A DNA stretch of 64,000 nt from a virus (taxonomy: Duplodnaviria > Caudoviricetes). The notes beneath the pieces were generated by a model that worked only from the letters and a program-made list of their open reading frames with translations, did not search any database and was not told where the DNA came from. Position numbers and translations under genes: made by a program. This document shows, one piece after another, positions 4,088 through 47,461 of this stretch (positions are counted from its first letter, which is position 1; each line of letters begins with the position of its first letter). The DNA lies in IMG/VR virus record IMGVR_UViG_2531839647_000001, positions 3,759 to 67,758 of that record. One strand, written 5' to 3'.

Positions 4088-4128
4088 ATTTTCTCAATTA
4101 GGTGAATCTATAAAGCCAATGAGTTCCA
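4088..4128 (-). promoter_or_regulatory. Putative late promoter (TGGAAC-N30-AAAAT) for the darA-ddrB operon
   Basis: One of 13 fixed-spacing copies found in intergenic gaps. Confidence 0.75.
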
Positions 4129-4132
4129 TAGC

Positions 4133-4786
4133 TTATTTTAAGTTGGGAAACATTTTGATGAAATTTAAAGTAACAATGGCATGTGCTTTATTAGAGGCAT
4201 CAAGGGGCAAATTGCCTGCTTGAAGTGAAACTAGATGCTCAATTTCAAATTGGTTCTGATTTCTTGCAGCTTTATCAAAAGCATATATTTTTAATCTCAT
4301 TAAGTATTCAATTGGTAGCGATTGAGTACCATCTTTATTAAACATTATTTCTTTTATAGCTTTAGCACTATTCGCAATAGCCGCCTCTTTAGTCTCAATA
4401 AATGAAATGCTCAACTCATTTGAAGCATTGCCAGTTACATGGTTGAGTTGAAAGTGCCCCACATGCACTGCATCGGTTTGGGCATCTAGTAGTGATACAT
4501 CTACATTATTGGCTAACCAAGCAACTTTATTTGAAGGATCAAAAATTGGAATATTTGCTTGAGCAATTTTACTGTTTGCACGGTAAGGGCGAATTTCAAT
4601 TCCAAAATGGGCAGCAGAAAGTGTCCCTAATGCATAAAGTTCCTGATAATGTGAAACAGCTCGGTCAACAGTTAGACCAGACCACAAGACAGGATTCTTA
4701 GCAAAACGTTCTTTAAACGGATTTAAAACGTTTCCCAAACTGTTATTTATAGTTTTATTCTGTGTTTCGTAATCAAAAAAAGCCAT
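4133..4786 (-). CDS. Virion structural protein, possibly tail-tube-like or baseplate
   Basis: Coupled to the portal gene; beta-rich pattern (ELSISFIET...IVTLNF). Confidence 0.4.
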   Translation of the reverse strand: MAFFDYETQNKTINNSLGNVLNPFKERFAKNPVLWSGLTVDRAVSHYQELYALGTLSAAHFGIEIRPYRANSKIAQANIPIFDPSNKVAWLANNVDVSLLDAQTDAVHVGHFQLNHVTGNASNELSISFIETKEAAIANSAKAIKEIMFNKDGTQSLPIEYLMRLKIYAFDKAARNQNQFEIEHLVSLQAGNLPLDASNKAHAIVTLNFIKMFPNLK

Positions 4787-6321
4787 TATTCTTCATCCTC
4801 TGGAAATTTACGGCTCTTAGCAATACTTTCAGCTAATGTTAATGCTTCCTCATATTTCATACCTGTATCGCGCTCAAGAATGTACGCCATAATATCTACA
4901 TCTAAGTTTGATTCTTTCAATGATGCGATTACTTGTGTTTTAAGTAATGTTGTATTCATTCTTGATTGAGCATTGTTGATTTCTTCTGTCGCGGCTGCAG
5001 TTTGGTTTGAATAATATTCAACTTGCCAAGGGTAATCTTCAGGCTCAAATTGTTCGTTGTAAGCAAACCCCCAATCCAAGTGAAGAATTTGATTAATCCC
5101 TTCAGAAGATGCTGTTCGAATATCTTGTGACCTACGCATGATTTGTGCAGAAGTATGGAATGCACCGCCTTCACCGATACCACCGGTTAGCATATCTGCC
5201 CAACCGACCATGCTTGGATCTAGACCAATTCCGCCCATGAGCAAACGGACATTAATCATGAACTGTTCAATATTAATGGGTGAGCTTCGTTGATTCTTGA
5301 TATCACCTACTGGATTTAAAACTTGTTTTTCATCAAATACTGGAAGCATGTGAAAAGCAGTATTCCAGACTGCTTCACCACCTGATAAAGCATCACGGAC
5401 ATAAGCCTCATGATTTTTAAGTAAACCTTCTAAACCACGGATATAGGCTTGACGTTGTGCTGGTGGCATTCCCGACATATTTACTGTCAAGAACATCTGA
5501 TTTACGGTATCTGCAATTTGCTGGCTGTTCATAGATGCTAAAGCAAGGATTACATCATCATAAATGTCTTCAATTTCGTAAAGGAATGAGCCGCCTAAAT
5601 GCGCTGGTAAGATTGGTAGCTCATCTGGATCATCCCCTTCTAACATTTTCGTGACAAGACCAGTTTCTACAAGCTCATATTGAGCAATATTGCTCATACG
5701 GGGCATTTTGAAACGTACCATTTGAATAGTATTCAGTTTTGTAATAGTTTTTTGCCAATTACGAGGATCTAAGCAATAAAACGCTACAGTTTTACTGCCT
5801 TGTTCAAATGGCTGTATCAAAGGTGGATACGTATATTCATTACATACTAGATCAATTACACCTTTATCTTTTTTCCCGTAAATACGTGCATAAGAATCAC
5901 CAAATGAAATTGCATCTCGGGCTAGCTTGCTTAAATACTTATTGATCAGCTTTTCCATCTTTACACGGCGCTCATCAAGTTGTTTTTTTAATTTTTCAGC
6001 TGCTGGTCCATTGGCCTTTTTCAAACGTTCGGCTGGTGTAATAAATACTTGTTGGCCGCTATAAGAATCTCCTCCTAATGCGGCAGAAACATGAATCCCC
6101 ATACCTTCAGCAATCGGCGCAAAGCGCAACATTCTCTCCCATTTTGTGAGTATTTCTTTGCGAGTACGTTTCTTATTGGCTTTGGTTTGATTAGTCCCAA
6201 GTGAAAATGGTGCCATGGTTTCATATAGCTGCGCCGTGGAATCCTGATTAGCCGTATCGAATTGCTGATCATATGAATTTACATTTTCACCGAGTAACAA
6301 CGATAAGAACCGAGAAGACAT
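4786..6321 (-). CDS. Portal protein (P1 Prt-like)
   Basis: 511 aa; ARDAISFGDSYARI, GGSFLYEIE and GLDPSMVGWAD..GGIGEGG patterns seen in P1/T4-type portals. Confidence 0.7.
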   Translation of the reverse strand: MSSRFLSLLLGENVNSYDQQFDTANQDSTAQLYETMAPFSLGTNQTKANKKRTRKEILTKWERMLRFAPIAEGMGIHVSAALGGDSYSGQQVFITPAERLKKANGPAAEKLKKQLDERRVKMEKLINKYLSKLARDAISFGDSYARIYGKKDKGVIDLVCNEYTYPPLIQPFEQGSKTVAFYCLDPRNWQKTITKLNTIQMVRFKMPRMSNIAQYELVETGLVTKMLEGDDPDELPILPAHLGGSFLYEIEDIYDDVILALASMNSQQIADTVNQMFLTVNMSGMPPAQRQAYIRGLEGLLKNHEAYVRDALSGGEAVWNTAFHMLPVFDEKQVLNPVGDIKNQRSSPINIEQFMINVRLLMGGIGLDPSMVGWADMLTGGIGEGGAFHTSAQIMRRSQDIRTASSEGINQILHLDWGFAYNEQFEPEDYPWQVEYYSNQTAAATEEINNAQSRMNTTLLKTQVIASLKESNLDVDIMAYILERDTGMKYEEALTLAESIAKSRKFPEDEE

Positions 6322-6351
6322 AACTAAGCCAAAATACCTAAATAATTAAGT

Positions 6352-6392
6352 ATTTTGATGGCTACCATTTTTTAACTTTTAGATGAGTTCCA
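6352..6392 (-). promoter_or_regulatory. Putative late promoter (TGGAAC-N30-AAAAT) for the portal operon
   Basis: gttcca at 6387-6392 and atttt at 6352-6356 on the + strand. Confidence 0.75.
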
Positions 6393-6400
6393 AAGTGAAT

Positions 6401-6441
6401 TGGAACCCTACAGATTTAATAAATCTGGAGCATGCAATTCT
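6401..6441 (+). promoter_or_regulatory. Putative late promoter (TGGAAC-N30-ATTCT) for the 64-aa gene, back to back with the portal promoter
   Basis: Only plus-strand copy; followed by the hairpin tctgaaca...tgttcaga overlapping the GAGGA RBS. Confidence 0.7.
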
Positions 6442-6480: not shown

Positions 6481-6675
6481 ATGGCTGAAGTTAAAGTATT
6501 TAATGATTTAGATATCGAATTAGCTCAAAAAACCAAAGACATTGTAAATGCCCAACGTTTTAACAACCGCCCTGCTTTCAAAACATTAAACCTAGGCTGG
6601 GATCTTGAAACTGGTTCCATTGCAGTTAACTACACTTTTGTAGAAGAACCGCCAGTTAACGATCAGCCTGCTTAA
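6481..6675 (+). CDS. Small hypothetical late protein
   Basis: GAGGA RBS, its own late-promoter motif and a downstream terminator. Confidence 0.7.
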   Translation: MAEVKVFNDLDIELAQKTKDIVNAQRFNNRPAFKTLNLGWDLETGSIAVNYTFVEEPPVNDQPA

Positions 6676-6765: not shown

Positions 6766-7038
6766 ATGAAATACTTGATAATATTATTTGTTTTTTTAAG
6801 TGGCTGCTCTACATTTATTGAGCATAATAGAGTTATTCCATTTCCTGAACGTACTATTTCACATATTGAAATTAGAAAACTTAATGGAGGTAATCCCAAA
6901 ACACTGGCCTATGCAGATATTACGGGTGATTCCTGTATAATCTATTTACGAAAGTATCCGCAATGCTTAGCACATGAAATAAGACATTGCTATGAAGGTA
7001 ATTGGCATGAAGGGCGTGAAAGTCAAGAATGGTGCTAA
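6766..7038 (+). CDS. Small lipoprotein with an HExxH motif; Cor-like superinfection-exclusion candidate
   Basis: Lipobox MKYLIILFVFLSGC; AHEIRH; convergent with the tail-tip genes. Confidence 0.55.
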   Translation: MKYLIILFVFLSGCSTFIEHNRVIPFPERTISHIEIRKLNGGNPKTLAYADITGDSCIIYLRKYPQCLAHEIRHCYEGNWHEGRESQEWC

Positions 7039-8159: not shown

Positions 8160-11100
8160 TTACCACAAACCTAATTTAACCCGTGCAACATTATTATCGT
8201 CGTAAACCGTAATTAAGCTTCCACTTAGAACCATACGAGCACCATTAGGCTTTGCAGGATCCTTGTAGGTAGTTAAGGTCCCCAACTCACCAGCAATCGC
8301 GCTCAATTTATCGACTTTAAACAGTTCAGCTGTTAAAGACTTCGCTTTGAAGTTTGATGCGGTCAAATTCTTAATAAATACATCACTATTCATAATGACC
8401 TGATTGTCTTGAATTATGAACGGCATATATTTGGTAGAAGATGTACCAGTAGTGAAGAAAATCTTATCAGCTTGGAATCCAATAGAACTGAGCACAGTTC
8501 CATTCGTTTGCTCGCTGACCATAGACATTCCAGAGAACACACCATTATTATCCATTCCCATTACGTACTTACCTTTCACACCATCAATCAAGTCTGCTTG
8601 TGATTTAAGCTTGATAGCATTTTGGCCGTAAACAGAAACCAGTGTTTGTAATGCACCAGCATATGCCCCCACATCAGTTGTATATGTGGTTTTGAAATTT
8701 TCGAAATCAGCTATGTTGTCAGCATCTTCAATATCGATAAAGTCTAGATCCACTTCACCAGCTTTACCTGAATAGTTACCAATGAATACAGGTGTAAAGA
8801 AAGCAGCTTTGTTTGCGAATGTTTTAGGGCTTAGTAGAGTGCCAGCACCTGCACTTGCACCAGCAGATCTACCTTTGAAATATGCAGTTCCAGTTATCCA
8901 AGTTCCCAGCGCTGGAGCGGTACCAGCGACTAGATAGTGACTTGCACCAATATCATTGATTTCAGAGTTATCTTGAGCAATATATTTTGTTTTATTGGCG
9001 TTTTGACATGTCGCGCCAACATAAACAACTCCGGTACCACTTACACGGCGGAATCTATACTTAACTCGGTAATATTTATTGTCATCAATAGGCAAAGATG
9101 CAAACCAATTTAACCAAGCTTCATCATTTCCAACGTTATTACCTATTCTTAGTGCATATCCCCCACGGCAAGTTGCATCGGCCACTAAATTAAGCTCAGG
9201 TTTATTTCCACTTGGTGTTTTTACTAACCAATCTTTTTGCCATGTATCTAGTACTGAAGCCATGATCTTTTGACCATTTGCAGAATACAGAGCAGACATT
9301 CTTTCAGTTGAAGATGCGATTGCTTCATTCGTCTTGGTAGACGTCATGTAATCACGCTCTAATGACGCTTTTGTAGTTGATGCTAAGTCTTTTGCAGAAT
9401 CGGCTATCTCTTTCGCCTTTTCAGATATTGCTCTTACCAGTGCTTGACGTGCATTGTGAACGTTAGCAAAGTTGGTAATAAACTGATTTCGGTCAATCGT
9501 AATAGTTGCATTCATATTGGCGAATAAAGCGGCTAAATAAGTATTTAAAGTACTGAATGCCGTAGCATAAGCAGCTGAAGAGATTCCATAAGTGACAGCT
9601 TCAGCTCTTAAGCTTGCATCAGTTTGATAAAGTGTATCCCAGACCAACTTCGCCTGTTTTTTCTCAACGGGTGTGAGTTTATTATCAGCTGCAATATCAC
9701 TTAACTGGGCCATTGGAACGTCCACTTTGGCTTGTGAGCCTGCAGTGGTTTCCATCATTGAAGTGACTGTGAATGGAGTAACCGACTTATAAACGGTTAA
9801 ATCTGTTTCAATAGCCGCTGACCACCCATCCTTAAAGTTATCTGGCGGGTTTGTATGAGTAATTGTTGCTGACTCAACAGTAATAGCTGGATATGACCAA
9901 GCATCTTTTTTGGTAATTAAGATGCACACCTTATTATTGCTATCTAAAGCTAAAGCCAAACCTTTAGTCGTAGCATTACTATCATCTAAAGTGATACCAA
10001 AAGAACGAGAAGTCATATTTGGATAAAATGGCACTGTTGACGTATAGGCATAGAATGCCAAGTCCAAATCAAAAATATTATCTTCCTTATTGTTGTAGTT
10101 ATAACCAGAGATTTTAACCTTGGTCATGAAGGCACCAATTGTAATTGGTGTCTTAATTACAAGTGTACCTGTAGTCGTGATTGGTTGACGCCATGTCAAA
10201 GGTTTCACGAAAATCTTGCCTCCACCTGAACCAAGTGGTTGCACACTCATAGCATTCGTATACTCAGAAGTTAATTTTTGTGATGAAGCGGCAATAGCAC
10301 GTTCTACATTTGTATTCGTTAAATCTGAATTAAGAATATAAGCGCTACTTTTACTATCTAACTTTGAATTCATCTCAGTTAGTTTAGCCGCCCAAGTTTC
10401 TTTGAAATTAGTTAATGTTGAAATAGAGTCTGTAGCAGTAGATACAAAGTCTTGTAATGTCGGGTCAGCTGAAGCGTAATCAGTCACATCATATTGCTCA
10501 ATTTGAGCTAAGGTCCAAACTAACGGCGCAGTAGCTGTTGGTGTAGATCCTCCCGCCACATAAACATGTCCTGAGTTAGAAAAAGTACCCACAGCACCAC
10601 ATTTAATCATTCGAATATATGTTTCGAATTTGCCTGTACCCTCAGTACTGCCAATGAATCTATCAATTGCACCGGTTCCCATTAAATTGCCAGCATTCAT
10701 TAACTTATATCCAACTGGTAACTTGATTAAATACTTGATGACAAAAACAGCATTTGCACGGCCATAAACAAGTTGGAAAAATCCACCCCACGTTGGGTTG
10801 GCAGCACCAATGGTTTTAATTTCAATTTCATGGGTTGAGGTAGTTGGGTTGTCAGAACTTTTCGCGACTCGTGTAACTGTCACGTTCCCATTGCCTGCAT
10901 TGTTATAGACAGATACACCATTGTTACCTTTCTTGAAATTTACGTCTCCCTGCAACAATTTTCCATTCGTAATCATCATTGCCAGCATTGTTGTGTTTTC
11001 TAATGCCGAGCCAAGATTATTTGTACTTGTTTGAAGCTGAGAAATTTCAGTATTTCTAAGTGTAGCTAGATCCTGTGAAGTTTGGTCAGCTGTAGCTTTC

Positions 11101-14100
11101 GTTGTTTTTACTACAGAAGATAAACCACCAGGTACAGTTGCATCATATTGTTGAATTTGCTGAGCTATAACCCCCTTATTAACATCAGCCTTGATAAAAG
11201 TATCTTCAACAAATTGAGCATTTTGTTTAAGAGACGATCTAAATCCACCCCTAAAATTTGGCGCTGAATTCCCCCGACTGATAAACATATTGGTTACAGT
11301 AAATGTTCCCCCAGATGGAGCATTATCAAACCGTAAACCCAATGGAATAGCTTCATAAGCAGAGGCTTTTAAATCAGATGGGAAAATACCAGTAAGTTCT
11401 ATTTCACCACTTGCAGCTACAACAAACGAAGGTAACCCAACACTATAAGTTGCACCATGAAATTGAATATTACATGTAGCCCCAACTAATCCAGCTGCAG
11501 CTGTATATTTAATTCTTGCAACAATTGGATCACCTTTATCAATTGGAATTTCCTTGTGTTTATATTGCAGTTCCCAAACAGCTACGGTTCGGTTTGTACC
11601 AGTTGCGATACTTAAATTTTTAGTATCATCACCAAGTAAAATCCAGTTCTCTTCTGAATAACGTAAAGTATCAAGTTGTGCTTTAAAGACTTTGATTTCC
11701 TCAGCAAATACTTCTTTCGCATCAGATCTTGTAATTTTTTCTTGAAGAATTTGTGCGTGGTTTTCTAAAACCTTTTGTAAGTTTCCACTATTGTTTGCCA
11801 GACCAATCGGGATACCACTAACAACTTGAACTGCAAGCATGATTTGCTTTGCCCCATTTGGTCCAGTATCAGGTGTTGCATGCAATTCAATACCGCGACC
11901 TGAACCAATCCCTTTCTGACCAACTAAAATGTATGCATCCCGACCTGTTATTTGATCAAGTGTGAATGGATTGGCACCTAATGAAATTAGTGCATTCTTA
12001 ACTGGTGCTAGGTTTACACCAATACTGTCGTAGTTTGTAACGATAACAAAGGTGTCATTTGGAATCGCAGCAATAGCGTTACTCATTGCCGTAGCATTTG
12101 CTACAGCTGCATAAGTATCATATCTAGTTGAAGAAGCTATAGAACCATCAGCTGCTAAAACATGGACTGAAAAACCACGTGCTGAAGCTACTGATTTGAT
12201 TTCACCTTTTAAGTTTTTAATCCCTGTGAAAAAGCCATTCCAGCCACATGAATAAACACGGTAATTGAAAACTTGACCAAGTTCCTGATTTAATTGTTTA
12301 TAACTTGATTCCAAGTTATTAATAGACTGTGTAGTGTTCTGTTGATTATCACTAATAGTTGAATTAATTTCCTGAAATTTACCATCTACAGCAGTTTTAT
12401 TATTGTCTACAGTAGATTTTAAAGTCGTATAATTCTCTGCAAGTGAAGTAATCTTTTCACCGTTTTTTTGAACATCCGCTTTAGTACCCTCAATTGCAGA
12501 AGCATTAGCTTCGAGGGCCTTAACAAGCTCACGTGGGTTTTTTCTAAATCCAGTTGCTAACTCCCCCTTTTCGATTTGTACTTCTCTAATTGCAAAATCA
12601 GGGGCAAATCCAGTCTGTGCATATAAAATAATATTAATATTATTTAGATTTGCCACATTGGTTTTAAATGTAAAAGTACAAAGTGTTTCTTTATCAGTAT
12701 TAATTTGCCATGAACTACCAAGTTGATTATTACTTGAACCATCAAATCGATGAATAATTAAAAGCAAACTTGTTTGAGCCGCAGTGAGAGATTTTGCCTT
12801 AAATGACAAGGTATATGTTTGATCAATCTCCAACCCATCTTCTGAAGTTAGTTGTTCAAAAAAACCTTTGAATGCAGTTGTTGTATTTGTTGATCTAAAA
12901 CGTCCCCAATTTGCTCCATTTTGGTCCTTATAGACCTCCATAACGCTACCAGCAACGTTTGCATTAATACGCCAGTTAGACAAAGCAAACGGCTGTGAAA
13001 AATCACCATTTTTAATTATGTTGTCACCACCACTTGATGAAATAGCAGCTTTAATAATTTTGCTTTCTTCCGCAATGGCCTGGTTAGTTTCTGTTTTGGT
13101 GTAACGAGTACTATCAAGAGTTGCAGAACTGTTAGTCCATAGATCACCAAATTTTTGACGGAATTTGGCTTCAAGTGATTCCGTAGCAGCGGAGATTGCT
13201 TTCGTGGTATCTGACTTACTTGAATAATCAACAAGAATAGAAGACTTAACAATAGTGCTGTCTACATCTGATTCATTTAGAACTGGAGTAATTCTATATG
13301 CTTGTGCTTCCCACCAGCCAGCATTACCTGTATGCCCTAAAGCAATACCTAACTGAATTTGAGGATAGGTTTCTGCAACTGAAGTCATGTTGATGACTTT
13401 AGAAATAAGAGTCCAAGTCTCATTTGCAGGAATTTCTGCTACTGGAACCGCTACGCTCGTATAGTTTGCTATTGAAAATACGCCATCATTTTTTGCACGG
13501 CCAATTGGGATGTAACAAAGACCATTTGAATCAGAGCTTCGGCGAACGAGGAAACTCACAATATATGCACGTGTATTCGGTAGGGTTTGTTTATTGTAAT
13601 TAAAGCAGTTGGCAGGGTTAGAAGTGTCCTTTCTAAATACAGTATTACCAATTTTCCCCGTAGTTGTAGTTTTAAAATATTGAGACATGTCCCAGCCGTA
13701 ATGGCTATACCACATTTCAGGATTCTTACAGTTGTAGTCCCCAGCTAAAGAATCACTGTCATTTGCGGACTTAAGTGCCTCATCCAATTTTGTAAGAGAT
13801 GTATTAAATGTTTTTGTTTGTGAGGCTGTAACTTCGTCTAATTTTGCATTCGTAGCGTAATTATTTAATGCCTGTGCCGTATTATTGACTTTCTTCTCTA
13901 CATCAGTCATTCCAGATTCAAGTTTTGAAGTCCGCTGTGCCAATGCTCCACTTTCAGTAACATAAGTTTGCTTAAACTCATTCAGACTTGCTGAAACCTG
14001 ATCAAATGCCGCATTGAAGTCATATGGACTGGCAATCCAACTATCTGTCGTTATTAGTTCGCCTTTAACTAATACAGCCCAATAAACTGTACCTACACTA

Positions 14101-20691: not shown

Positions 20692-20732
20692 AGGTTAAAA
20701 GGTTATATCTACTTAAAATTTGATTGGTTCCA
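20692..20732 (-). promoter_or_regulatory. Putative late promoter (TGGAAC-N30-AACCT) for the tube-hub-spike operon
   Basis: Fixed spacing; directly follows the terminator at 20734-20763. Confidence 0.75.
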
Positions 20733-23230: not shown

Positions 23231-23271
23231 ATTTTGAGCCGTGGTTGTTTTTGATTTTCTGGCTAGTTCCA
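23231..23271 (-). promoter_or_regulatory. Putative late promoter (TGGAAC-N30-AAAAT) for the sheath operon
   Basis: gttcca at 23266-23271 and atttt at 23231-23235. Confidence 0.75.
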
Positions 23272-26035: not shown

Positions 26036-26076
26036 AGTCTGACATGTGCTATTTTTACTAAAGCTGGTCGGTTCCA
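26036..26076 (-). promoter_or_regulatory. Putative late promoter (TGGAAC-N30-AGACT) for the capsid operon
   Basis: gttcca at 26071-26076 and agtct at 26036-26040. Confidence 0.75.
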
Positions 26077-29978: not shown

Positions 29979-30019
29979 ATGGTAGTTATGGCTATTAAGT
30001 AACTTAGGGGTCAGTTCCA
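29979..30019 (-). promoter_or_regulatory. Putative late promoter (TGGAAC-N30-ACCAT) for the tail-fibre operon
   Basis: gttcca at 30014-30019; -10 box TACCAT. Confidence 0.75.
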
Positions 30020-34494: not shown

Positions 34495-34535
34495 ATTGTT
34501 TCAGTTGTTCTACAGTTGAAATTTAATCAGTTCCA
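34495..34535 (-). promoter_or_regulatory. Putative late promoter (TGGAAC-N30-ACAAT) for the protease-terL operon
   Basis: gttcca at 34530-34535 and attgt at 34495-34499. Confidence 0.75.
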
Positions 34536-35267: not shown

Positions 35268-35308
35268 ATGAAATCATTTTGTATTTGTGTACTAACTCAA
35301 CAGTTCCA
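35268..35308 (-). promoter_or_regulatory. Putative late promoter (TGGAAC-N30-TTCAT, weak -10) for tad1
   Basis: gttcca at 35303-35308; the -10 pentamer lacks the conserved A. Confidence 0.6.
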
Positions 35309-38066: not shown

Positions 38067-38107
38067 AGGGTATTGCTTTTATAATTATGTAAGCGGGAAT
38101 GGTTCCA
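38067..38107 (-). promoter_or_regulatory. Putative late promoter (TGGAAC-N30-ACCCT) for the baseplate operon
   Basis: gttcca at 38102-38107; -10 box TACCCT. Confidence 0.75.
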
Positions 38108-39205: not shown

Positions 39206-39246
39206 ATTTTGCAATTTATCTAATCAGTGATAAGAAAGTGGTTCCA
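39206..39246 (-). promoter_or_regulatory. Putative late promoter (TGGAAC-N30-AAAAT) for the Hdf-PBECR gene
   Basis: gttcca at 39241-39246 and atttt at 39206-39210. Confidence 0.75.
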
Positions 39247-39342: not shown

Positions 39343-41064
39343 ATGCTACAAATTTGTACAGGAAAACTTTATACCCGAGAAATTGAATATCGAAATAATT
39401 TAAAAGGGATTATTTATACAAATTTAAAATTATTTCGTGATGAAAAAATTCAGACTAAAGCAGGCACAATACTATCTGTTGAAAATGCAGAAGGTCCAAA
39501 TACTGTTATCTATGAAATAGAAGAACTAGTTGAAGAAACTGAAAGTAAACCAGGAGTTCTAATTTCTCATGGGATTAGTTATTTAATTTTAGACTTTTCT
39601 ACAATTCTTTCCTTTACTTTAAATTGTACAGCTTCACCTAGTCATTCACTTACGGAACGATTGCTAAGCGATGAACGAGGGGTTTCTACTCATACATCAC
39701 CAAGTAAAATGATTAAAACCGTTTTTGACAAAAATATTTTCTGCCAAGAAGAAGATCAAAAATTTTTTATAAGCTTCACTAATCATTTAATTGGACTAGA
39801 ACGTAAAACGTTTTTAGGTGTAATGAGTTCAATTCGAACATATGTTACAGGCATGCATCGAATCGCCGATGATTTTGAATTAGCCTACACTCTACTCGTT
39901 GCATCAATTGAATCTCTTGCACAAAATTTCGATGGTCACCAATCAACTTGGGAAGATTTCGATCAGCTTAAAAAAAAGAAAATTGATGAAGCATTAAATG
40001 GATGTGAAACTGAAATTGCTCTAAGAGTTAGGGAGGCAATATTAAGTTTAGAGCATACCTCTTTAAGAAAAAGATTCGAAGCATTTGCACTTGAACATGT
40101 ATCTCCTTCTTATTTTAGGGAGGATGCTGATTTTGTACTAAATCCTATTGCTAAATTAGATTTACCGACAGCCCTTTCAAATGCTTATCAAGCTAGATCA
40201 AAATATGTGCACAATTTAATAAAATTACCAAAGCAATTAATCTTTGCTGAATATTCTGAAACGTGTTCAATAAACGATAAAAAATGGCTTACCCTCCAAG
40301 GGTTATCGAGACTTGCAAGGCATGTAATTATCGAATTTGTTATGAAACAAAAAATTATTGAAAAAGAACCATACGATTATTCTTTAGAACGATCTAATAT
40401 TTTACAAGTGCATTTAGCACCTCAATATTGGATTGCATATCCTGACTTTAGCATAGGTGCTGGGATTCAAAAGCTGGAAGGGTTTCTTTCTCAGCTAAAA
40501 GAATGTTTAACAAATGTTCCTGATGCGAGTGTAACTGACTTATCAAACGTTTTAGACGAATTTGAATCTAAAATTGATACATTAAAGCAAGCAGATAAAC
40601 ATGCTTTTCTAGCTTTATACATAATTTATAACGCATATTTGAATAAAACATATGAAGACCATGAACAACGTATAAAAAAAGCAAGAAGATTTATTAAGAA
40701 ACATCAAAAAAAGATTTCAAATCCTTGCGTTGAAGGTCTTATAGTTAACAGTTTGCTAATACTTGATATTCAATGGGATATTGAAGAACATGAAAAATAC
40801 TTACAACAATATTTTAAAGATAGAGATAAAAAATTAAAAATAAGATGTCCAGATATATTTGAATCAGGAATGATTCTTCAATTAGCTGAACGTTATCGAA
40901 AAGATGGTAATCAGATAAAGGCAATTGAACTAATTGAAATGGCCGTTGAAAACCTACCTTCTCACAAAGAACTACGCAATTTTGAAAACGAATATAAAAA
41001 ATCTCCAAAAAAAATTGATAGTAAGGAAATATTATTCCCAATCATTGAGGAAAAAAGCCCATAA
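39343..41064 (+). CDS. HEPN-domain (ApeA-like) putative anti-phage protein, moron
   Basis: AYTLLVASIESLA...AYQARSKYVH (RxxxxH); AT-rich, opposite strand, own terminator. Confidence 0.65.
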   Translation: MLQICTGKLYTREIEYRNNLKGIIYTNLKLFRDEKIQTKAGTILSVENAEGPNTVIYEIEELVEETESKPGVLISHGISYLILDFSTILSFTLNCTASPSHSLTERLLSDERGVSTHTSPSKMIKTVFDKNIFCQEEDQKFFISFTNHLIGLERKTFLGVMSSIRTYVTGMHRIADDFELAYTLLVASIESLAQNFDGHQSTWEDFDQLKKKKIDEALNGCETEIALRVREAILSLEHTSLRKRFEAFALEHVSPSYFREDADFVLNPIAKLDLPTALSNAYQARSKYVHNLIKLPKQLIFAEYSETCSINDKKWLTLQGLSRLARHVIIEFVMKQKIIEKEPYDYSLERSNILQVHLAPQYWIAYPDFSIGAGIQKLEGFLSQLKECLTNVPDASVTDLSNVLDEFESKIDTLKQADKHAFLALYIIYNAYLNKTYEDHEQRIKKARRFIKKHQKKISNPCVEGLIVNSLLILDIQWDIEEHEKYLQQYFKDRDKKLKIRCPDIFESGMILQLAERYRKDGNQIKAIELIEMAVENLPSHKELRNFENEYKKSPKKIDSKEILFPIIEEKSP

Positions 41065-41073
41065 AATTAAGTA

Positions 41074-41114
41074 AATTTAAGTTCTCATTTTATTCATTAA
41101 TGAGAACTTAAATT
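41074..41114. terminator. Long inverted repeat between convergent genes
   Basis: aatttaagttctcatt-ttattcatt-aatgagaacttaaatt. Confidence 0.65.
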
Positions 41115-41209
41115 AAGTAACGGAGAGCTCTTTATAATCTTTTAAGAAATGGGATTATAATCAACTAGGTTCATTTCCTGATCTGCACTCTTGTATATCT
41201 TATAATTCT

Positions 41210-42034
41210 TTAATCCGAGTTTCTATCTTTAGCACATGGTAACCAAATCAAATCTGATCCTGCAGCATTTTGATTTTCTGAACCCCAACACCAACCACCA
41301 TTTTTTATATCAACATATAAAGCATCTCTTGCGTTACAGCTTTGAATTGTTTTGGGGTCATCACCCGAACCACCACGGCATGAATCATTGAGCTTTTCAA
41401 ATTGAGAAATTTTGTTTTGAATGATTTTAGGAAGTTCAGAAGGTTGTTTTTTCAGATAATCGTTTATACCTTGTATTGATAGGTCACCAGCTTGATAGTA
41501 ATGAACATAAATAATCGGCAACTCTTCAATTTGATTAGTCGTAGGGTTCGTATAAGTAAATACATCTGACGGCGCTACAGTGCCTTTAAATGCGATTATA
41601 TCTCCTTCTATTACCCTCGCTTTTTCATTCGGGTCAAAAACCAGTACTGCTAAGTTACCATCGAAATTAGCTTTATTTCCGATTACACCATATAGACCAG
41701 CCTTTTGATTAATTAGAGGCCGTGTTGATACCAAAGCTAAAGTGTGATTATCAACTTTTTGGATTGAATCAATACTCGCTGCGCCTACTACCTTTGTACC
41801 TACAGCATAATCATGAAATCTGATAGCTCTATAGGTTTTGTCATCATTTATTAAAATACTTTGATTCAAAAAATCAGATTCATTTAAAGATGAGAAATCA
41901 TAAGTTGCTTCCGCTTTAACTGGTTCTTGCATTGCTGATTTAGAACCTTCAGCTGGTTGCTCATTATTTTTATTACAACCAGCTAATGCAAGCATAGTAA
42001 TTAATACCGTTAAATTTAAAGCTCTAAGAGTCAT
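41210..42034 (-). CDS. Lipoprotein (OB-fold-like centre, Cys-rich C-terminus)
   Basis: Lipobox LALAGC; CRGGSGDDP...C...GWCWG...WLPC. Confidence 0.65.
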   Translation of the reverse strand: MTLRALNLTVLITMLALAGCNKNNEQPAEGSKSAMQEPVKAEATYDFSSLNESDFLNQSILINDDKTYRAIRFHDYAVGTKVVGAASIDSIQKVDNHTLALVSTRPLINQKAGLYGVIGNKANFDGNLAVLVFDPNEKARVIEGDIIAFKGTVAPSDVFTYTNPTTNQIEELPIIYVHYYQAGDLSIQGINDYLKKQPSELPKIIQNKISQFEKLNDSCRGGSGDDPKTIQSCNARDALYVDIKNGGWCWGSENQNAAGSDLIWLPCAKDRNSD

Positions 42035-42041
42035 TAATAAA

Positions 42042-44285
42042 CTAACCTTCTAAGTTTCCCATTCCTATTCCACCAGTTAAAGCATGGGCTAGGTATCTAT
42101 CATTTACATTCTGACCGATATTACCATTATTTCCATTAACAACAACGACTTCCTGAGGATTTGGTGTATTAAGTGGCTGTTTAAAGGCTGGTATTTTTGT
42201 TATAGGAATACTTTTTAAGCTAGTTACATTTGAGCTTTGATCCCTGTTTGAAGTTGGTATATGTGGAGTTCTAGAGCTCAGTACGCCTGAGAGTTTTCTA
42301 CTTGTTTGGTTATAGATATTCTCCTGCTTTTGCTCAACCTTAGAAGCGCTCTTTACTGTTTTAGCTTCAATATCTTTTAACGTTTTAGAGTTATCTTGCT
42401 TATCTGTGAGTAGTGATCTTTTACCAGCATCAACATGGATATTTTGTGCCATTGCAGAACGTTTCATAGCTTCAGCTTCAGCTGCTGCTGGTCGCTCATA
42501 ATATCGAGAAATAATAGCGCCAGCTTGATTAGCGGTTTTAGATTGTCTTAACTTTTTACCTGCAGATGATTCATTGTTATTTAATTCCCAGTTAACAAAA
42601 GCTAATTGTTCTTGATATGAGGATTGACGAATATCTTTACCAAACTTTTGTTTAAATTTAGCTTGTCTATCAGGATGCCATTGACCAATTCCAAAAGCTT
42701 TACCACTATCACCTATAGCCGTATGTTTAAAGCCACTTTCAGCTTCAAGATTCGCAACTATTCCAGCAGCTTGTTCAGATGTCCAATTTCCCCCTTCCTT
42801 GCTTGTGAAAAACTTTAATGCCTCATCTCTAGCAGATGATCTATTAACAGGTTGTGCAATAGTGGCACCATATTGTGCTACACCAGCATTTGCACCAAAA
42901 CCCAGCTTATAAACGCCTTGGCCGATGCCCCATGTTGGAACACCGTCATGGAATGGATTAAATCGGTTAAATTTATCCTTAATGAAATCTAAAGTATCGC
43001 CAGTAGTATCTTTAACTCCGTCTACAACTTTTGAAGCTGTACCTTTCGCCTGTTCGAAAGCATTAGACGCATAACTTAAAAATCCTTTCCATGCACTATT
43101 AATAATACCTGGTACATCTGCAGCTATTAAAGAATCTGTCCACTCTTTGAAATACGGCGCAACTACGGTTCCTAGCTTATTCCCAATCCAAGAACCAGTC
43201 ATGCCCCCAATTAATGTACCAGCTGGACCAAATAAAGAACCGACAGTACCACCAATTACTCCACCTGCAAGACTACCAACTGTACCGCCCTTTTCTTGTG
43301 TGCTTTGTTCATTCCAATCTAACAATGATGCTCCAGCAGCCAGTGCACCAATTACGGGTAGTCCACGGCCAAACTTAAGAAGTTTACCCAAGCCCTTTCC
43401 TAATTTCCCTACACCTTTCTTTCCTTTGCCTAGAGCACCACCTAGAAGCCCACCACCAGCAGATAACACGGAAGTAAGTAATTTCCCTAGAGAACTTAAT
43501 AAACCGCCTCTAGCAGCTAAATTATCGGCAATTCGCTGCAATAACTTTATTTGTTTACGGTTATGGCTCTCATGCTCTCTTGGTAATGGTTCATTACGTT
43601 TTTTACTACGCATCAATCCAGTTAATGGCCGCAAGGCTAAACCAGCAGCACGGCGTACAGGTGAAAGTAAGTGACCAACTTCATTGATTGCATCAACTGT
43701 AGGATCTACACCTTGCGGTGAGTTCGGCATTACACCCTTTACCGCCGTGGTAATTGTTTGTGCAACTTTGCTAATAGCGGATTGGTTTTTAACATCATCT
43801 TGATTAGAAACAAAACGTCCGTTCTCATCACGTTCTGGTGTAGATGAGCTTACGACCTTATTCAAATCTTCATGGCTATTAATCTCTATAGCTGGCTTTC
43901 GTGCCTTAGGTCGGTTGATTTGTTCTTTATTTGCTGAATTAAGGTCACTAACCGATTGCTCCAATACATCTGCAAAGTCTTTCACCAACTTATCGGCTAC
44001 AACAAAAGACTGCGTGATAGGATTTGCTTTTTCTTTTAATAAATCTTCAAAGTCTAGAGCTTGTCTATTATTGACAGCATTTAGCATCTTTTGAAATTCA
44101 GTAAGTTTTGGCTGAGGCTTAGCTAACTGTGTTTTTTGCTCTTCAAAGCTTTGAGTAAGAATATCTATGATTCTTTCAATATTTGAATCAATCGCACTTA
44201 CTTTTTTTTCAACTCGTTTCATCCCGATGATGAAGCCCAGCTCATCGTATGATAAAACTGGATTATTGTGATTTGAATCTGCCAT
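42042..44285 (-). CDS. Tape-measure-like protein with a phage tail lysozyme domain
   Basis: Gly-rich hydrophobic segment; QAAGIVANLEAESGF...AFGIGQWH..R...QLAFVNWEL...YERP. Confidence 0.75.
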   Translation of the reverse strand: MADSNHNNPVLSYDELGFIIGMKRVEKKVSAIDSNIERIIDILTQSFEEQKTQLAKPQPKLTEFQKMLNAVNNRQALDFEDLLKEKANPITQSFVVADKLVKDFADVLEQSVSDLNSANKEQINRPKARKPAIEINSHEDLNKVVSSSTPERDENGRFVSNQDDVKNQSAISKVAQTITTAVKGVMPNSPQGVDPTVDAINEVGHLLSPVRRAAGLALRPLTGLMRSKKRNEPLPREHESHNRKQIKLLQRIADNLAARGGLLSSLGKLLTSVLSAGGGLLGGALGKGKKGVGKLGKGLGKLLKFGRGLPVIGALAAGASLLDWNEQSTQEKGGTVGSLAGGVIGGTVGSLFGPAGTLIGGMTGSWIGNKLGTVVAPYFKEWTDSLIAADVPGIINSAWKGFLSYASNAFEQAKGTASKVVDGVKDTTGDTLDFIKDKFNRFNPFHDGVPTWGIGQGVYKLGFGANAGVAQYGATIAQPVNRSSARDEALKFFTSKEGGNWTSEQAAGIVANLEAESGFKHTAIGDSGKAFGIGQWHPDRQAKFKQKFGKDIRQSSYQEQLAFVNWELNNNESSAGKKLRQSKTANQAGAIISRYYERPAAAEAEAMKRSAMAQNIHVDAGKRSLLTDKQDNSKTLKDIEAKTVKSASKVEQKQENIYNQTSRKLSGVLSSRTPHIPTSNRDQSSNVTSLKSIPITKIPAFKQPLNTPNPQEVVVVNGNNGNIGQNVNDRYLAHALTGGIGMGNLEG

Positions 44286-44314
44286 AACAAAAATGCCCCA
44301 TTTTGATATAGGGC

Positions 44315-44355
44315 ATTTTGGATAATTTTTTTATATAAAATCCTATGAAGTTCCT
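44315..44355 (-). promoter_or_regulatory. Putative late promoter (AGGAAC-N30-AAAAT) for the tape-measure operon
   Basis: gttcct at 44350-44355 and atttt at 44315-44319. Confidence 0.7.
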
Positions 44356-44368
44356 ATTGTTATAATTC

Positions 44369-44638
44369 TTAGACAGGCCATCTAACCTCCAATTTAAGTG
44401 TGCTTGGTGTATGAATGCCAGCATTTGCTTGGTATCCATCAGCTCTTAAGACGTTTACCACAGTTTCTAACACATTTAATGGGACGAAATCTGGATCAAA
44501 CACTCGAGTTAAATCACCACTGCTTGGATTATTTTTAATAAATTCATATACCTGATTTAGTAATGATTCAGAAGTCGGTTTCGCAGTTTGAGATGCCAGT
44601 TTAGTTGCTTCAGCTGCAGTAATACGATTTGATGACAT
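44369..44638 (-). CDS. Hypothetical protein
   Basis: ORF with a GAGA RBS; N-terminal ITAAEA pattern common in small phage proteins. Confidence 0.6.
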   Translation of the reverse strand: MSSNRITAAEATKLASQTAKPTSESLLNQVYEFIKNNPSSGDLTRVFDPDFVPLNVLETVVNVLRADGYQANAGIHTPSTLKLEVRWPV

Positions 44639-44743
44639 TTGAAAGTCTCTATTAAGTTATTGGTTCTTATTAATATAGTCAGACTAGGGTGAAAACATGG
44701 GAAGTATTTTTAATTTTCGTCATCATTTGTTCAATAGTTATGC

Positions 44744-44770
44744 AAAAGCCCTCCATTTGGGAAGGCTTTT
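44744..44770. terminator. Bidirectional terminator
   Basis: aaaagccctcc-attt-gggaaggctttt (imperfect stem). Confidence 0.6.
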
Positions 44771-44788
44771 TAAAGTCATTAATTAAAA

Positions 44789-45070
44789 CTATTTACGCAT
44801 TTCTTTTACGACCAATATAGAAAAGCCAAGAGGCATAAAAAATATTAAAAAAGTGCTGGCAATAATAAGACCTATTGCAAGGAAATCGAAAGCTACTCCA
44901 GTTTGAATTAAATCCATTGGAGCAAAGAAATAATCTATTGCGTGTTGTTGCATTTTTATAGCAGGTGGGAAAAAAACTTTAAATGCAATTAAATAGGTGA
45001 TTAAAATAACCAAATACGCCCACCATGGTAGGGGATCATTATCCTTTGGATTAGTAACTTGATGAGACAT
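44789..45070 (-). CDS. Two-TM membrane protein
   Basis: AGGAG RBS; two hydrophobic helices. Confidence 0.6.
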   Translation of the reverse strand: MSHQVTNPKDNDPLPWWAYLVILITYLIAFKVFFPPAIKMQQHAIDYFFAPMDLIQTGVAFDFLAIGLIIASTFLIFFMPLGFSILVVKEMRK

Positions 45071-45152
45071 TTTTGCTCCTTAGTTCTAAAGGCTGTCAAT
45101 TTATTGTAGATTTCAAACAAATAGTATATTCATTACTCAACTATATTCCAGT

Positions 45153-45998
45153 TCAATTTTCACTTAGTTTTTCATCTTCAGGATCTACTTCACCGGCTTC
45201 AATTAAGGCAAGCTTACGCATAAATGCTTCTTCTTTTTTCCGCTTCATATTAGCCTTGGCTAATGCCATACGCTCTTCTGCGCCTGAGATAACAGAACTT
45301 CGGCGTGCCTGAACTTCCGATTGATCTTTCAAATCATCAACATCTAAACCCCAGAACATTGCTTCAGTTCGAGCAATGTTAGAAATGCTGATACTTTGTT
45401 TAACGTTCAAATCAACCACTTGACTAATCAAGCCCATTTTAAACTTAACCAGCGCCAATTCATCTTCAGTAGGATTATTCAGATTAAGTACTTCATCTCT
45501 AATATGAATAACGCTATCGATAGTGTCTGTAATTAACTCCCCGAGCTTATGAGCTCTAATACGGTTATTTTTGACAACCAAAGCTGACTTTAGATAGTTC
45601 TCGTTGACTGTAGAACGCCCGCCGTTGTTATGACCACTATTTTTTGAGTTTTGACTATTAAATTCAGCAATATTTGACGTTTTTTTGACAGATTTTTGAC
45701 TATCACTTTTTTCTGATTTTTCAGTGCCTTGTGTATCATCTTGACCATTGTTTTTTTTGGTCAATTTTTTAATCTCTTTATTAAGCTCTTGGGCTGTCTT
45801 TTTGACTAGAGATTTAGCTTTCTTTTTCCATTTCTCAGCAAGTGCTTTACGGCGTACAACGGATGGCGAAGGCATCTCACAACCGAGTTCTTCGCCAACC
45901 TGATCAACTAAACCTTGCCACGTAATCTTAGGAGAAGATTCATAGACTTCTTTTAGCCGGTTCCAAATTTCTTCCGAGTATTCAATCTTGCGAGCCAT
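45153..45998 (-). CDS. Terminase small subunit candidate (PacA-like)
   Basis: N-terminal HTH (W..LK..YE...VRRKALAEKW), charged linker, helical C-terminus ending WGLD. Confidence 0.55.
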   Translation of the reverse strand: MARKIEYSEEIWNRLKEVYESSPKITWQGLVDQVGEELGCEMPSPSVVRRKALAEKWKKKAKSLVKKTAQELNKEIKKLTKKNNGQDDTQGTEKSEKSDSQKSVKKTSNIAEFNSQNSKNSGHNNGGRSTVNENYLKSALVVKNNRIRAHKLGELITDTIDSVIHIRDEVLNLNNPTEDELALVKFKMGLISQVVDLNVKQSISISNIARTEAMFWGLDVDDLKDQSEVQARRSSVISGAEERMALAKANMKRKKEEAFMRKLALIEAGEVDPEDEKLSEN

Positions 45999-46011
45999 TA
46001 AAGTCTATCCC

Positions 46012-46698
46012 TTAATCAGTAAATAGACCTATTTGTTTTACTTCAGCTATAGCTTGTTGCTGTAAAGAAGCCTTGCTAAAACGTTTTTTATTTTGGATAA
46101 GATCAATTAGAGCTTTTTGCTGTAAATCGTTCTCTTCACGTTGGAAAACATCATCGATAGCCATTTCTAAGTTACGGATTTGTTTCGCACGATTTTGTTC
46201 ACACTCACGAACGATACGCATAAGAGTGTGAAGTTCTGGTAAAACCTTTTCTTGAATAGATTGATCTTGCGATAAACATGCTTGAATGAGCCCTTTTGAG
46301 GCTTCAAGTAACTCAACCGTTAAGGCTTTAGGGAAAGAAGTAATATGCTGTGCTGCAGCCATACTTAATTGAAATGCCATGGCTTGAGTATATTCACTCA
46401 TCATTTCACCAAGACTGTTAAACAGAATACCAGCTACAGAAGCCGTTTTATCTAGTTCAGGTTCAATTGTAAAACCAAGAACCCAGTCGGCTGAAACACC
46501 ATATTTTTGACATAGCAAAGAAAGTAATTCTGCATCAGGCATTAACTTACCGTTTTCAATTTCACTCATTCGATTTTTATGTGGAGTACCGAATATCTCT
46601 AATGCTACGTCTTCTTGACGTAATTGAGCCATGTCACGCGCCATTGCAAGTTTTCTACCGATAAGTACTCGACGTTGCAAATCGCTCTTTTTCGCCAT
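46012..46698 (-). CDS. XRE-family HTH regulator with a helical C-terminal domain
   Basis: GRKLAMARDMAQLRQEDVA...MSEIENG..MPDAELL..LC..YGVSADWVLG. Confidence 0.8.
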   Translation of the reverse strand: MAKKSDLQRRVLIGRKLAMARDMAQLRQEDVALEIFGTPHKNRMSEIENGKLMPDAELLSLLCQKYGVSADWVLGFTIEPELDKTASVAGILFNSLGEMMSEYTQAMAFQLSMAAAQHITSFPKALTVELLEASKGLIQACLSQDQSIQEKVLPELHTLMRIVRECEQNRAKQIRNLEMAIDDVFQREENDLQQKALIDLIQNKKRFSKASLQQQAIAEVKQIGLFTD

Positions 46699-47388
46699 TT
46701 AAATGCTTCTCCCAGCTAACCAATCAAAATCTACAGATTGTGACAACCAATCAGTTTCATCAGTAAACACGCAAGAAAGCCAGACACAACCGTTTTCACA
46801 TGGTTCTGCCAGCTTAATTTGTTCACTTATGAAAATATTGTCGTCTTTGAATAACAAGCCATCACCTTTGACACTATCAATAATAAGTTTGGGATAGTTA
46901 TCAATATCAAATCGTGGATATGTCTTAGCGCTGTAAGAACGAGTTTTAAGTGGTGGTTGAACAATTAACCGTATTTCACAAAGTTGATCGATAGCTTTTA
47001 ACTTAAGTGCTTTAAACATAGGTCCATATTGCTTTTGAACCTTGTCTTTATATTTTTTAGCACCTACAGAAAGACTATTTCTTTGCTTTCCGTTCTGATC
47101 AATTGTAGCCCGCCAAATCTCGTTAGCGCTTAAGCCATAAGGCAATTTGATTGTGATGTATTGCTTACCAGAAATGATAACACCGCCTGTGCTTCCCCTA
47201 TATATACTATTTTCACCATCATTTTCTTTTTCTATATGGCACGGGAAAAACACATGTTTAGATGAGCTAGTTTTTTGCTTTTTAACTTTGTCATGACCTG
47301 ATGAAAAACTGAAATCCTTAAAGAGTTCCTGTCTTTTATTATTAGAGAAAAATTCACTCCACTGACGGCGTTTAGAACGTGATGACAT
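46699..47388 (-). CDS. rusA: RusA-like Holliday junction resolvase
   Basis: LPYGLSANEIWR and RFDIDNYPKLIIDS...FKDD catalytic Asp motifs. Confidence 0.8.
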   Translation of the reverse strand: MSSRSKRRQWSEFFSNNKRQELFKDFSFSSGHDKVKKQKTSSSKHVFFPCHIEKENDGENSIYRGSTGGVIISGKQYITIKLPYGLSANEIWRATIDQNGKQRNSLSVGAKKYKDKVQKQYGPMFKALKLKAIDQLCEIRLIVQPPLKTRSYSAKTYPRFDIDNYPKLIIDSVKGDGLLFKDDNIFISEQIKLAEPCENGCVWLSCVFTDETDWLSQSVDFDWLAGRSI

Positions 47389-47420
47389 TCTGAAAAACTC
47401 AATTAAATTTTATTTAAGTG

Positions 47421-47461
47421 ATTATTTATTAATTGTTATTACGTCGTTCGGTACAGTTCCA
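47421..47461 (-). promoter_or_regulatory. Putative late promoter (TGGAAC-N30-ATAAT) for the rusA-HTH-terS operon
   Basis: gttcca at 47456-47461 and attat at 47421-47425. Confidence 0.75.

Follow-up and report, generated by a model that had tools for sequence, protein, structure and literature searches.

The DNA analyzed here, called the window throughout, is a stretch of 64,000 nucleotides (nt) that covers bases 3759-67758 of the 67,758-base IMG/VR provirus record IMGVR_UViG_2531839647_000001, a record rated 96% complete, and our subject is a bipartite intergenic signal, TGGAACY followed after 29 nt by a hexamer of the form nAnAAT, which recurs ahead of the morphogenesis genes. The structural region shares 93% DNA identity with the temperate Acinetobacter baumannii myovirus vB_AbaM_ABMM1 (ABMM1 below), and by its sequence the source is a temperate Acinetobacter myovirus-type prophage. 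The gene layout was taken from PHROG and Pfam scans, with gene starts given by mechanical open reading frame (ORF) calls that were adjusted by PHROG matches. A morphogenesis block on the minus strand encodes the portal, tail sheath and tube, baseplate, large terminase and a fiber-like protein of 3,499 amino acids (aa), together with P1-like DarA, DdrB and Hdf proteins, and an early operon on the same strand, running from ~57.9 to 49.4 kb, encodes a replication initiator, a DnaC-like loader and a methyltransferase. A cI-like repressor gene (58051-58824, plus strand) faces a 67-aa Cro-like helix-turn-helix (HTH) ORF (57720-57923, minus strand), so that the immunity and early regulatory layout is lambdoid in appearance; because a cI/Cro-type immunity region is present, an earlier note on this DNA was fair in describing the phage as lambdoid-regulated.

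The earlier note had listed 13 copies of the signal, and all 13 are present in the window with the -10-like hexamers that it gave (Table 1; unit coordinates follow the window numbering unless marked as those of the record). Twelve of them fit the pattern GGAAC-N30-ANNNT, and the copy at 35268-35308 has TTCAT as its pentamer, as the note had said. The count of 13 holds for the window and falls short for the prophage, whose total is 15: two further copies lie to the left of the window, at record 1838-1878 and 3684-3724, where they head a holin/endolysin pair and a 270-aa gene (a baseplate tail-tube protein in the ABMM1 annotation). The regulon consists of 15 intergenic units, 14 on the minus strand and one on the plus strand. 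With the T of TGGAAC numbered as position 1 and the hexamer ending at position 41, T1 is found in 14 of the 15 sites, G2, G3, A4, A5 and C6 are invariant, and position 7 is either C or T. A37 (14/15) and T41 (15/15) are the best-kept positions at the hexamer end, where position 39 is A or C in 14 sites and position 40 in all 15, giving the consensus nAnAAT. The spacer had been called unconserved, and positions 8-35 are indeed nearly free over the 15 sites; the description fails only for a weak 3' extension of the box, visible among 72 non-redundant sites as C11 (36 sites), A12 (33), A14 (48) and T16-17 (37-38). Seven nt past the hexamer, at position 48, an A stands in 12 of the 15 sites in the record and in 32 of 41 non-redundant sites from relatives, and position 47 is likewise a pyrimidine in 32 of these 41. 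Position 48 played no role in site selection, whereas the 41-site and 72-site sets were chosen on A37 and T41, so only their other columns are informative; both were built with a crude ORF filter and include a few coding false positives.

The signal is concentrated between genes. Intergenic DNA makes up 4,830 of the 67,758 bases of the record (7.1%, by our ORF table) and holds 15 of the 26 copies of TGGAACY, 14 of the 15 in gene sense, compared with 11 copies in 62.9 kb of coding DNA, which corresponds to densities of 3.1 versus 0.17 per kb, an 18-fold difference. Among the 180 permutations of the hexamer's letters, TGGAAC has the most intergenic copies (15), followed by the overlapping GGAACT (10), with all others at no more than five. 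The spacing is equally distinctive: taking all 17 intergenic GGAAC sites without preselection, ANNNT is found at N30 in 14, versus 7/17 at the next best spacing and 0-3 at most others. The full pattern GGAAC-N30-ANNNT matches 20 times in the window, 19 of them on the minus strand, compared with 7.2 +/- 2.7 matches in 100 dinucleotide shuffles (maximum 16; none reached 20), and the eight matches that the earlier note had not listed all lie within coding DNA. The comparisons with coding DNA, with shuffled DNA and among spacings thus bear out the fixed-distance signal that the note had described. Two sites were left out as members, 54727-54767 (minus strand) and 6614-6618; the former, which lies ahead of the replication initiator gene, pairs GGGAACT with CAAAAT over a spacing of 36 and not 30. 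A full copy of the motif (TGGAACT ... GAGAAT) also occurs at 18945-18985 on the minus strand, within a 297-aa tail gene, with the 3,499-aa gene ~280 nt downstream of it; relatives keep this copy, a conservation that the coding sequence alone may explain.

Comparison with relatives points the same way. Over four orthologous sites, each represented by 15-19 distinct sequences from close relatives, the box has a mean pairwise identity of 0.96-1.00 and the hexamer one of 0.82-1.00, as against 0.65-0.80 for the 28-nt spacer, whose length is kept despite the change in its sequence. Across 80 related IMG/VR loci (1.53 Mb in total, with 89-96% sheath identity) the pattern occurs 419 times in sense and 52 times in antisense, and ABMM1 carries 17 sense copies, three of them coding and at orthologous codons, plus one divergent copy. 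Two distant prophages were also reconstructed, with proteins that share ~33-78% identity with their counterparts in the window. In the Alkanindiges illinoisensis prophage the N30 pentamer follows 17 of 52 sense copies of TGGAAC versus 1 of 17 antisense copies, and in the A. puyangensis prophage 19 of 40 versus 0 of 9. When a stricter pattern was run over the whole genomes of both distant hosts, 10 of 25 and 10 of 19 matches fell within late regions of 45-48 kb, all in sense, and the remaining matches were comparable to the reversed-pattern controls (8 and 11). The host chromosomes are therefore at background, and the signal belongs to the phage and not to a host regulon. It is a real, phage-specific and strongly conserved bipartite signal, and it recurs at orthologous places in the 80 related proviruses, in ABMM1 and in the two distant prophages, so that the check in related prophages suggested in the earlier note comes out in its favor.

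Most units overlap or follow a terminator-like hairpin, a feature that the earlier note had left unremarked. In 9 of the 15 units a hairpin extends from at or inside the hexamer to a T-run abutting the start codon (leader z <= -3.2), such that the putative promoter DNA forms the 5' arm and the 3' arm holds bases that read as a G-rich Shine-Dalgarno sequence; a simple terminator scan flags two of these nine leader hairpins. Four other units (record 1877; window 20731, 23270 and 26075) have no significant leader hairpin and begin 1-13 nt past a strong terminator-like hairpin with a T-run (z <= -4.2), and because each follows a terminator these four need a new transcript start. The unit at 30018 has a weak hairpin only, and the unit at 47460 has neither hairpin nor terminator. 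Among the 41 non-redundant sites, 23 have a leader z < -2, and the mean folding energy of the RNA up to the start codon is -8.3 kcal/mol when counted from the hexamer versus -1.4 kcal/mol when counted from position 48.

The hexamer consensus, with a YA dinucleotide 6-7 nt downstream of it, has the look of a sigma-70 -10 element and its start site. Transcription would be predicted to start 7 nt past the hexamer, which therefore places the box at -47 to -42. Judged on sequence only, the layout fits a class II activator-dependent sigma-70 promoter, with a -10 that retains A2 and T6, no -35 box in any of the 15 units, as the earlier note had claimed, and a site overlapping the -35 zone. T1G2G3 and C10C11A12 may form a feeble dyad centered at -41.5, a feature we take only as a hint. 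Consensus sigma-70 promoters are depleted in the region 28000-47900 (39 versus 65.1 +/- 7.7 in shuffles), and the plus-strand unit at 6401-6441 has no plus-strand gene upstream of it. Taken together, we infer that the units are quite probably late promoters. Two other ways of parsing the unit were tried and rejected: a sigma-54 promoter (GG-N10-GC), as positions 13-14 are unconserved, and the box as a -35 element with a -10 ~17 nt further on, as there is no conserved A/T pattern at positions 24-29.

Six-frame hidden Markov model searches of the 96%-complete record found no Q at E <= 0.1 (PF06530 and PF03589, the two Q families searched), no Ogr_Delta (PF04606, E <= 0.1), no Mor domain (PF08765) and neither Sigma70_r2 (PF04542) nor Sigma70_r4_2 (PF08281), and P1 Lpa (from AF234172), compared with the whole record by tblastn, produced a single 12-residue match at E 2.6, in agreement with the earlier note, which had recognized no Q or Lpa gene. 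The immunity repressor is excluded as the reader of the box because it is only 27% identical between the window phage and ABMM1, which share the box. A comparison of every ORF of the record with both distant prophages left just three non-structural proteins shared by all three phages, and their genes are neighbors: a RusA-like protein (46699-47388), the XRE-type HTH protein P0001 (HTH_19 match at E 1e-6) and the 281-aa TerS-like P0002, whose resemblance to small terminase subunits comes from a language-model search (score 0.93) and is no more than a lead. In ABMM1, from which most early genes are absent, P0001 is 99% identical, and its homologues all come from Acinetobacter and other Moraxellaceae; the order of the trio is kept in 10 of 18 homologue loci examined. 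Its putative recognition helix, (Q/H/R)(K/A)NR(I/M)SE(I/M)E, hardly varies even among homologues with as little as 36% overall identity, and co-variation between helix and box is uninformative, both being nearly invariant. Lambdoid phages carry Q after the position of the RusA-like gene, and P0001 is found at that place. Its operon is the only unit with neither terminator nor hairpin, and read-through from the early operon could enter it; in the A. puyangensis prophage the ~600 nt ahead of the RusA-like gene showed no box, consistent with expression driven from the early operon. Among the Pfam-scanned conserved proteins none has a recognizable DNA-binding domain besides P0001 and P0002. We tentatively put forward P0001 as the activator, an assignment whose chances we rate as somewhat short of even.

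In the mechanism that we propose, early read-through would make P0001 first, and P0001 would then switch on ~15 units, its own operon included, which together cover head, tail, baseplate, packaging, anti-restriction and lysis genes. At each unit the phage-coded DNA-binding protein would sit at the box and recruit the polymerase in the style of a class II activator, on a site of ~12 bp that is made up of the box and its weak 3' flank (C11, A12) and centered near -41.5. Host sigma-70 RNA polymerase would read the unit through a minimal -10 (A2, T6, and A or C at 4-5) in the absence of a -35, and transcription would probably start at the A that lies 7 nt past the hexamer. The units would be insulated from upstream transcription in one of two ways, by a terminator just before the box or by a terminator-like hairpin laid over the unit itself, and in the latter variant the 5' arm would cover the -10/+1 region and the 3' arm would hold the Shine-Dalgarno bases. 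Late transcripts that start inside the hairpin would lack its 5' arm and would therefore be neither terminated nor blocked in translation, while read-through from upstream would be both. The same logic is documented in the relevant passage of PMC3014915 for the T4 genes e and I-TevI, whose long upstream transcripts are untranslatable and whose late transcripts lack the 5' arm. Overall, we favor with moderate confidence the explanation that TGGAACY-N29-nAnAAT units are phage-specific, activator-dependent late promoters, with P0001 as the most likely activator.

Phage P1 relies on scattered late promoters activated by Lpa, and lambda on antitermination by Q. Like P1, whose Lpa acts with host SspA, the prophage is a temperate myovirus with many scattered late promoters, here predicted ones, before its operons for morphogenesis, packaging and lysis; in both, these promoters combine a -10 with an upstream element specific to the phage and lack a -35, and the prophage carries P1-like Dar genes as well. 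The Lpa element is a 9-bp sequence centered at -22, according to the AF234172 annotation and the passage of PMC3152322 that treats it. Here, by contrast, the -22 region is unconserved (positions 20-32 carry no more than 0.5 bit each over the 15 sites and no more than 0.28 bit over the 41 sites), the box would lie at ~-45, and Lpa has no homologue by tblastn. Phage Mu differs in having four late promoters versus 15 here, a different motif and a Mor-family domain, that of the activator of its middle promoter, which has no counterpart in the record. In position it is closer, as the C activator site lies at ~-30 to -55 at Mu promoters with a -10 and a poor -35 (PMC3152322, in the part on Mu), the same zone as that of the box by the predicted start. 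P2 Ogr acts at a dyad at -55 (PMC3152322, in the part on P2). Unlike P2 and P4 with their Ogr/Delta regulators, the prophage has no Ogr_Delta protein and no -55 dyad, the 12 positions upstream of the box carrying no more than 0.22 bit each. The design would work like the late systems of P1, Mu and P2 and yet appears to be a member of none of them, as it lacks their regulator families and has an element of another sequence and, Mu excepted, another position.

The closest geometry, by analogy, would be that of class II activation, for example by lambda cI at PRM, where the site is centered near -42 and the activator contacts sigma region 4. In both cases the promoter has a weak -35, and an XRE-type HTH protein acts, or in the case of P0001 is predicted to act, just upstream of the -35 zone and overlapping it, with a predicted center of -41.5 in the prophage. 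The likeness has its limits: P0001 has neither a peptidase S24 nor a cI-type C-terminal domain, its predicted site has one strong and one weak half, and it would be a dedicated late activator for 15 promoters. As in T4 genes e and I-TevI, a hairpin that holds the ribosome-binding site would have its 5' arm encoded by late promoter DNA, in 9 of the 15 units as predicted here; unlike in T4, where late promoters depend on gp55 and TATAAATA with no upstream box, the units combine the nAnAAT hexamer with an upstream box, their hairpins have terminator-like T-runs, and a layout that is an exception in T4 is the rule. With lambda and its Q the prophage shares a lambdoid immunity and early region and a candidate regulator placed after the RusA-like gene at the border of early and late genes, whereas the Q systems of lambda, 82 and 21 use a single strong late promoter (-35, -10) followed by a terminator, in contrast to 15 dispersed units without a -35 and a record without a Q domain. 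It also differs from extracytoplasmic function (ECF) and other alternative sigma systems, having no -10 at 16-17 nt past GGAAC (positions 23-30 are unconserved) and a conserved hexamer 29 nt past the box.

Other explanations of the signal differ in what reads the box and in what the box does. If the units are late promoters, their reader might be a phage protein of a family other than that of P0001, or the polymerase might be modified, in concert with a DNA binder, by one of the small phage proteins, such as the TraR/DksA-like product of 32560-32760, which would act via the secondary channel. P0001 is tied to the motif by co-occurrence and position only, many conserved late-region proteins have no assigned function, and a TraR/DksA zinc finger (PF01258, 37.3 bits) is encoded both here and in the A. 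puyangensis prophage. TraR-type proteins, however, are not known to have DNA sequence specificity; the TraR-like gene itself sits inside a late operon behind a putative box promoter and has no match at E <= 1e-5 in the Alkanindiges prophage, and, as said above, P0001 and P0002 alone have a recognizable DNA-binding domain among the Pfam-scanned conserved proteins. We regard a reader other than P0001 as unlikely on this evidence. An antitermination scheme, in which A-tract, hairpin and T-run form a terminator ahead of each late block and TGGAACY is the loading site of a processive antiterminator that acts on transcripts from further upstream, would account for the hairpins and T-runs abutting the start codon in 9 of 15 units and for the z < -2 leaders in 23 of 41 sites, for the frequent pairing of the hexamer with the T-run, and for the location of P0001 at the lambdoid Q position. 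It would leave unexplained why the spacing between box and hexamer is rigid when the hairpin position is variable (the 5' arm starts anywhere from position 37 to 46), why the six sites of 15 with no significant leader hairpin keep box, spacing and hexamer, and why T41, which an A-tract does not require, is invariant; moreover, upstream of the plus-strand copy there is no transcript that could be modified, the cassettes have no consensus promoter ahead of them from which they could be fed, and neither Q-family domain searched (PF06530, PF03589) was found. We consider this scheme very improbable.

The box could also be an operator for a repressor that silences constitutive late promoters, or the -35 equivalent for a sigma-like phage factor of a kind not recognized by our searches. 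Either would suit an invariant and phage-specific box, and GGAAC does resemble the -35 element of ECF sigma promoters. Yet the six-frame search found no Sigma70_r2 or Sigma70_r4_2 domain, the positions 16-17 nt past the box are unconserved, and one sigma could not bridge a gap of 29 nt. A repressor fares no better, given that constitutive activity is unlikely for promoters that combine a weak -10 with the lack of a -35, that a site at -45 is badly placed for repression, and that the immunity repressor is only 27% identical between phages sharing the box; both forms of this idea strike us as highly implausible.

Several observations count against the activator-dependent promoter explanation that we favor. 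Part of the conservation of A residues could stem from the fact that an A-rich hexamer with a hairpin and T-run also resembles a bidirectional intrinsic terminator. The spacing is 29 and not 30 in the most distant homologue loci, and in several loci no site was seen in the 10-20 kb covered. The link between P0001 and the motif is correlative, since P0001 belongs to a conserved gene block that co-occurs with the motif. Proteins with an XRE-type HTH usually dimerize to bind dyads, and here the right half-site is weak, with C11 and A12 each present in half or fewer of the 72 sites. The AlphaFold model of P0001, an HTH followed by long helices, is mediocre (predicted local distance difference test score, pLDDT, of 66); a Foldseek search with it against the PDB gave no match at E <= 0.001, only generic XRE domains, and when the sequences were searched against solved structures, P0001 had no match below E 0.07 and P0002 had none at all. 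Transcript data from relatives are of a kind that cannot show starts: the RNA-seq data are assembled contigs, sharing about a fifth of words, and in four contig sets covering 20600-40000 long contigs span several sites and shorter ones end near some of them. In the A. baumannii ATCC 17978 start-site table (PMC6182133 supplement), none of the four hexamer-plus-leader strings searched for appears as a phage promoter; three of the leader strings are absent from it, and the fourth, an 11-mer, matched an unrelated tRNA-modification gene. TGGAAC occurs 39 times in that table, and the box is at -47 in neither of the two passages viewed, so that the data for this strain give no test.

Prophages of this type are very common in Acinetobacter, with 80 IMG/VR loci and homologues in A. 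baumannii, A. pittii, A. nosocomialis and A. calcoaceticus, and full-text literature searches on the motif, late promoters and Acinetobacter found no description of the motif or of gene control in this prophage type. The motif offers a ready map of their late transcription units, and the candidate pair of activator and promoter, which the host chromosome lacks, could be used as an orthogonal switch in Acinetobacter. The signal most likely marks a regulon of ~15 late promoters that depend on an activator and share a new box; the activator family is probably new too, and a promoter-in-terminator layout runs throughout the regulon. Such late control would be a further scheme, with a regulator unlike any of the five that were searched for (Q, Lpa, Ogr/Delta, Mor domains, and sigma regions 2 and 4), and the layout would extend a device documented for a few T4 genes to a whole regulon. 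More speculatively, and with greater doubt than we attach to P0001 as the activator, the P0001 family may represent a new class of dedicated phage late-gene activator that acts at ~-41.5 on ~15 promoters per genome, each in or behind a terminator, found so far in Moraxellaceae prophages only; in that case two locks would hold the late genes, insulation of transcription and sequestering of the ribosome site, and only starts inside the hairpin would open them.

Table 1. Box-hexamer units of the window and the gene of the candidate activator. Folding energy (dG) and z are hairpin folding scores for the leader or for the DNA upstream of the box.
Position	Strand	Box and hexamer	Gene or operon headed	Hairpin, terminator and remarks
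4088..4128	-	TGGAACT + 29 nt + GAAAAT	DarA-like 650-aa gene (2107-4059) and DdrB-ParB gene	leader hairpin overlapping predicted start, dG -9.8, z -4.3
6352..6392	-	box + CAAAAT	portal gene (4786-6321)	leader hairpin, dG -11.2, z -4.5
6401..6441	+	TGGAACC ... AATTCT	64-aa ORF (6481-6675) and 90-aa lipoprotein-like ORF (6766-7038)	divergent; sole plus-strand member; conserved in ABMM1
20692..20732	-	box + TAACCT	tail tube gene and operon with 3,499-aa gene	terminator-like hairpin directly upstream of box, dG -14.4, z -4.3
23231..23271	-	box + CAAAAT	tail sheath gene (21902-23197)	terminator-like hairpin directly upstream, dG -11.0, z -4.2
26036..26076	-	box + CAGACT	592-aa head gene (24219-25997)	terminator-like hairpin directly upstream, dG -9.7, z -4.2
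29979..30019	-	box + TACCAT	512-aa tail-fiber-like gene and baseplate genes	begins 6 nt past large terminase stop; weak leader hairpin, dG -6.0, z -1.2
34495..34535	-	box + AACAAT	operon 33559-34464 ... TraR-like ... large terminase	hairpin and T7 run abutting ATG, dG -11.2, z -3.4
35268..35308	-	box + TTTCAT	152-aa gene	only hexamer without A at position 2; hairpin and T7 run, dG -10.6, z -4.2
38067..38107	-	box + TACCCT	118-aa gene (true start 38037) and baseplate genes	hexamer part of hairpin, dG -11.7, z -5.1
39206..39246	-	box + CAAAAT	Hdf-like 313-aa gene (start 39178)	leader hairpin, dG -11.6, z -5.6
44315..44355	-	AGGAACT + CAAAAT	747-aa tape-measure/tail-lysozyme-like gene	leader hairpin, dG -15.3, z -5.1
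47421..47461	-	box + AATAAT	operon RusA-like / HTH-228 / TerS-like	only member without upstream terminator and without leader hairpin, leader z 0.1, upstream z 0.2
46012..46698	-		candidate activator P0001, 228 aa	N-terminal XRE-type HTH, helical C-terminal part

At 6387-6407 two boxes stand back to back (GTTCCA, 8 nt, TGGAAC), with the portal operon running leftward and the two small ORFs rightward, an arrangement that is conserved in ABMM1. The P1-like virion anti-restriction set occupies 596-4059 and 38237-39178 on the minus strand and comprises a protein with a DarA_N domain (650 aa), a DdrB-ParB domain protein (503 aa) and the Hdf-like protein; putative box promoters directly head two of these three genes (4127 and 39245), the DdrB-ParB gene lying behind the DarA gene in the 4127 unit. 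The fiber-like protein is encoded by a single 3,499-aa ORF (8160-18659, minus strand) with long coiled-coil stretches and internally repeated domains, and its conservation in the distant prophages is limited to the first ~140 residues. The 66-aa ORF with the TraR/DksA-type C4 zinc finger, on the minus strand, lies inside a late operon between a 271-aa gene and the gene upstream of the large terminase, where it is hidden by the mechanical ORF 32036-32593.

Two genes on the opposite strand stand apart in composition. A 496-aa TIR/SEFIR protein (47573-49063, plus strand) matches the PADLOC bSEFIR defense model at E 8.9e-83, and its gene, which lies in an island of 28% GC between the early operon and the first late unit, resembles a defense moron. 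A 573-aa ORF (39343-41064, plus strand) of low GC (32%), with no ABMM1 counterpart, no PHROG or PADLOC match and one Pfam match far under the cut-off, may be another moron. ABMM1 in turn has extra genes (antirepressor-like, a Phd/RelE-type pair and a small repressor) inserted beside putative box promoters at 12082-14486 and 37123-38472 of its genome, and it carries two copies of a gene whose product starts MSKAL, each copy with its own box and with a different leader hairpin.

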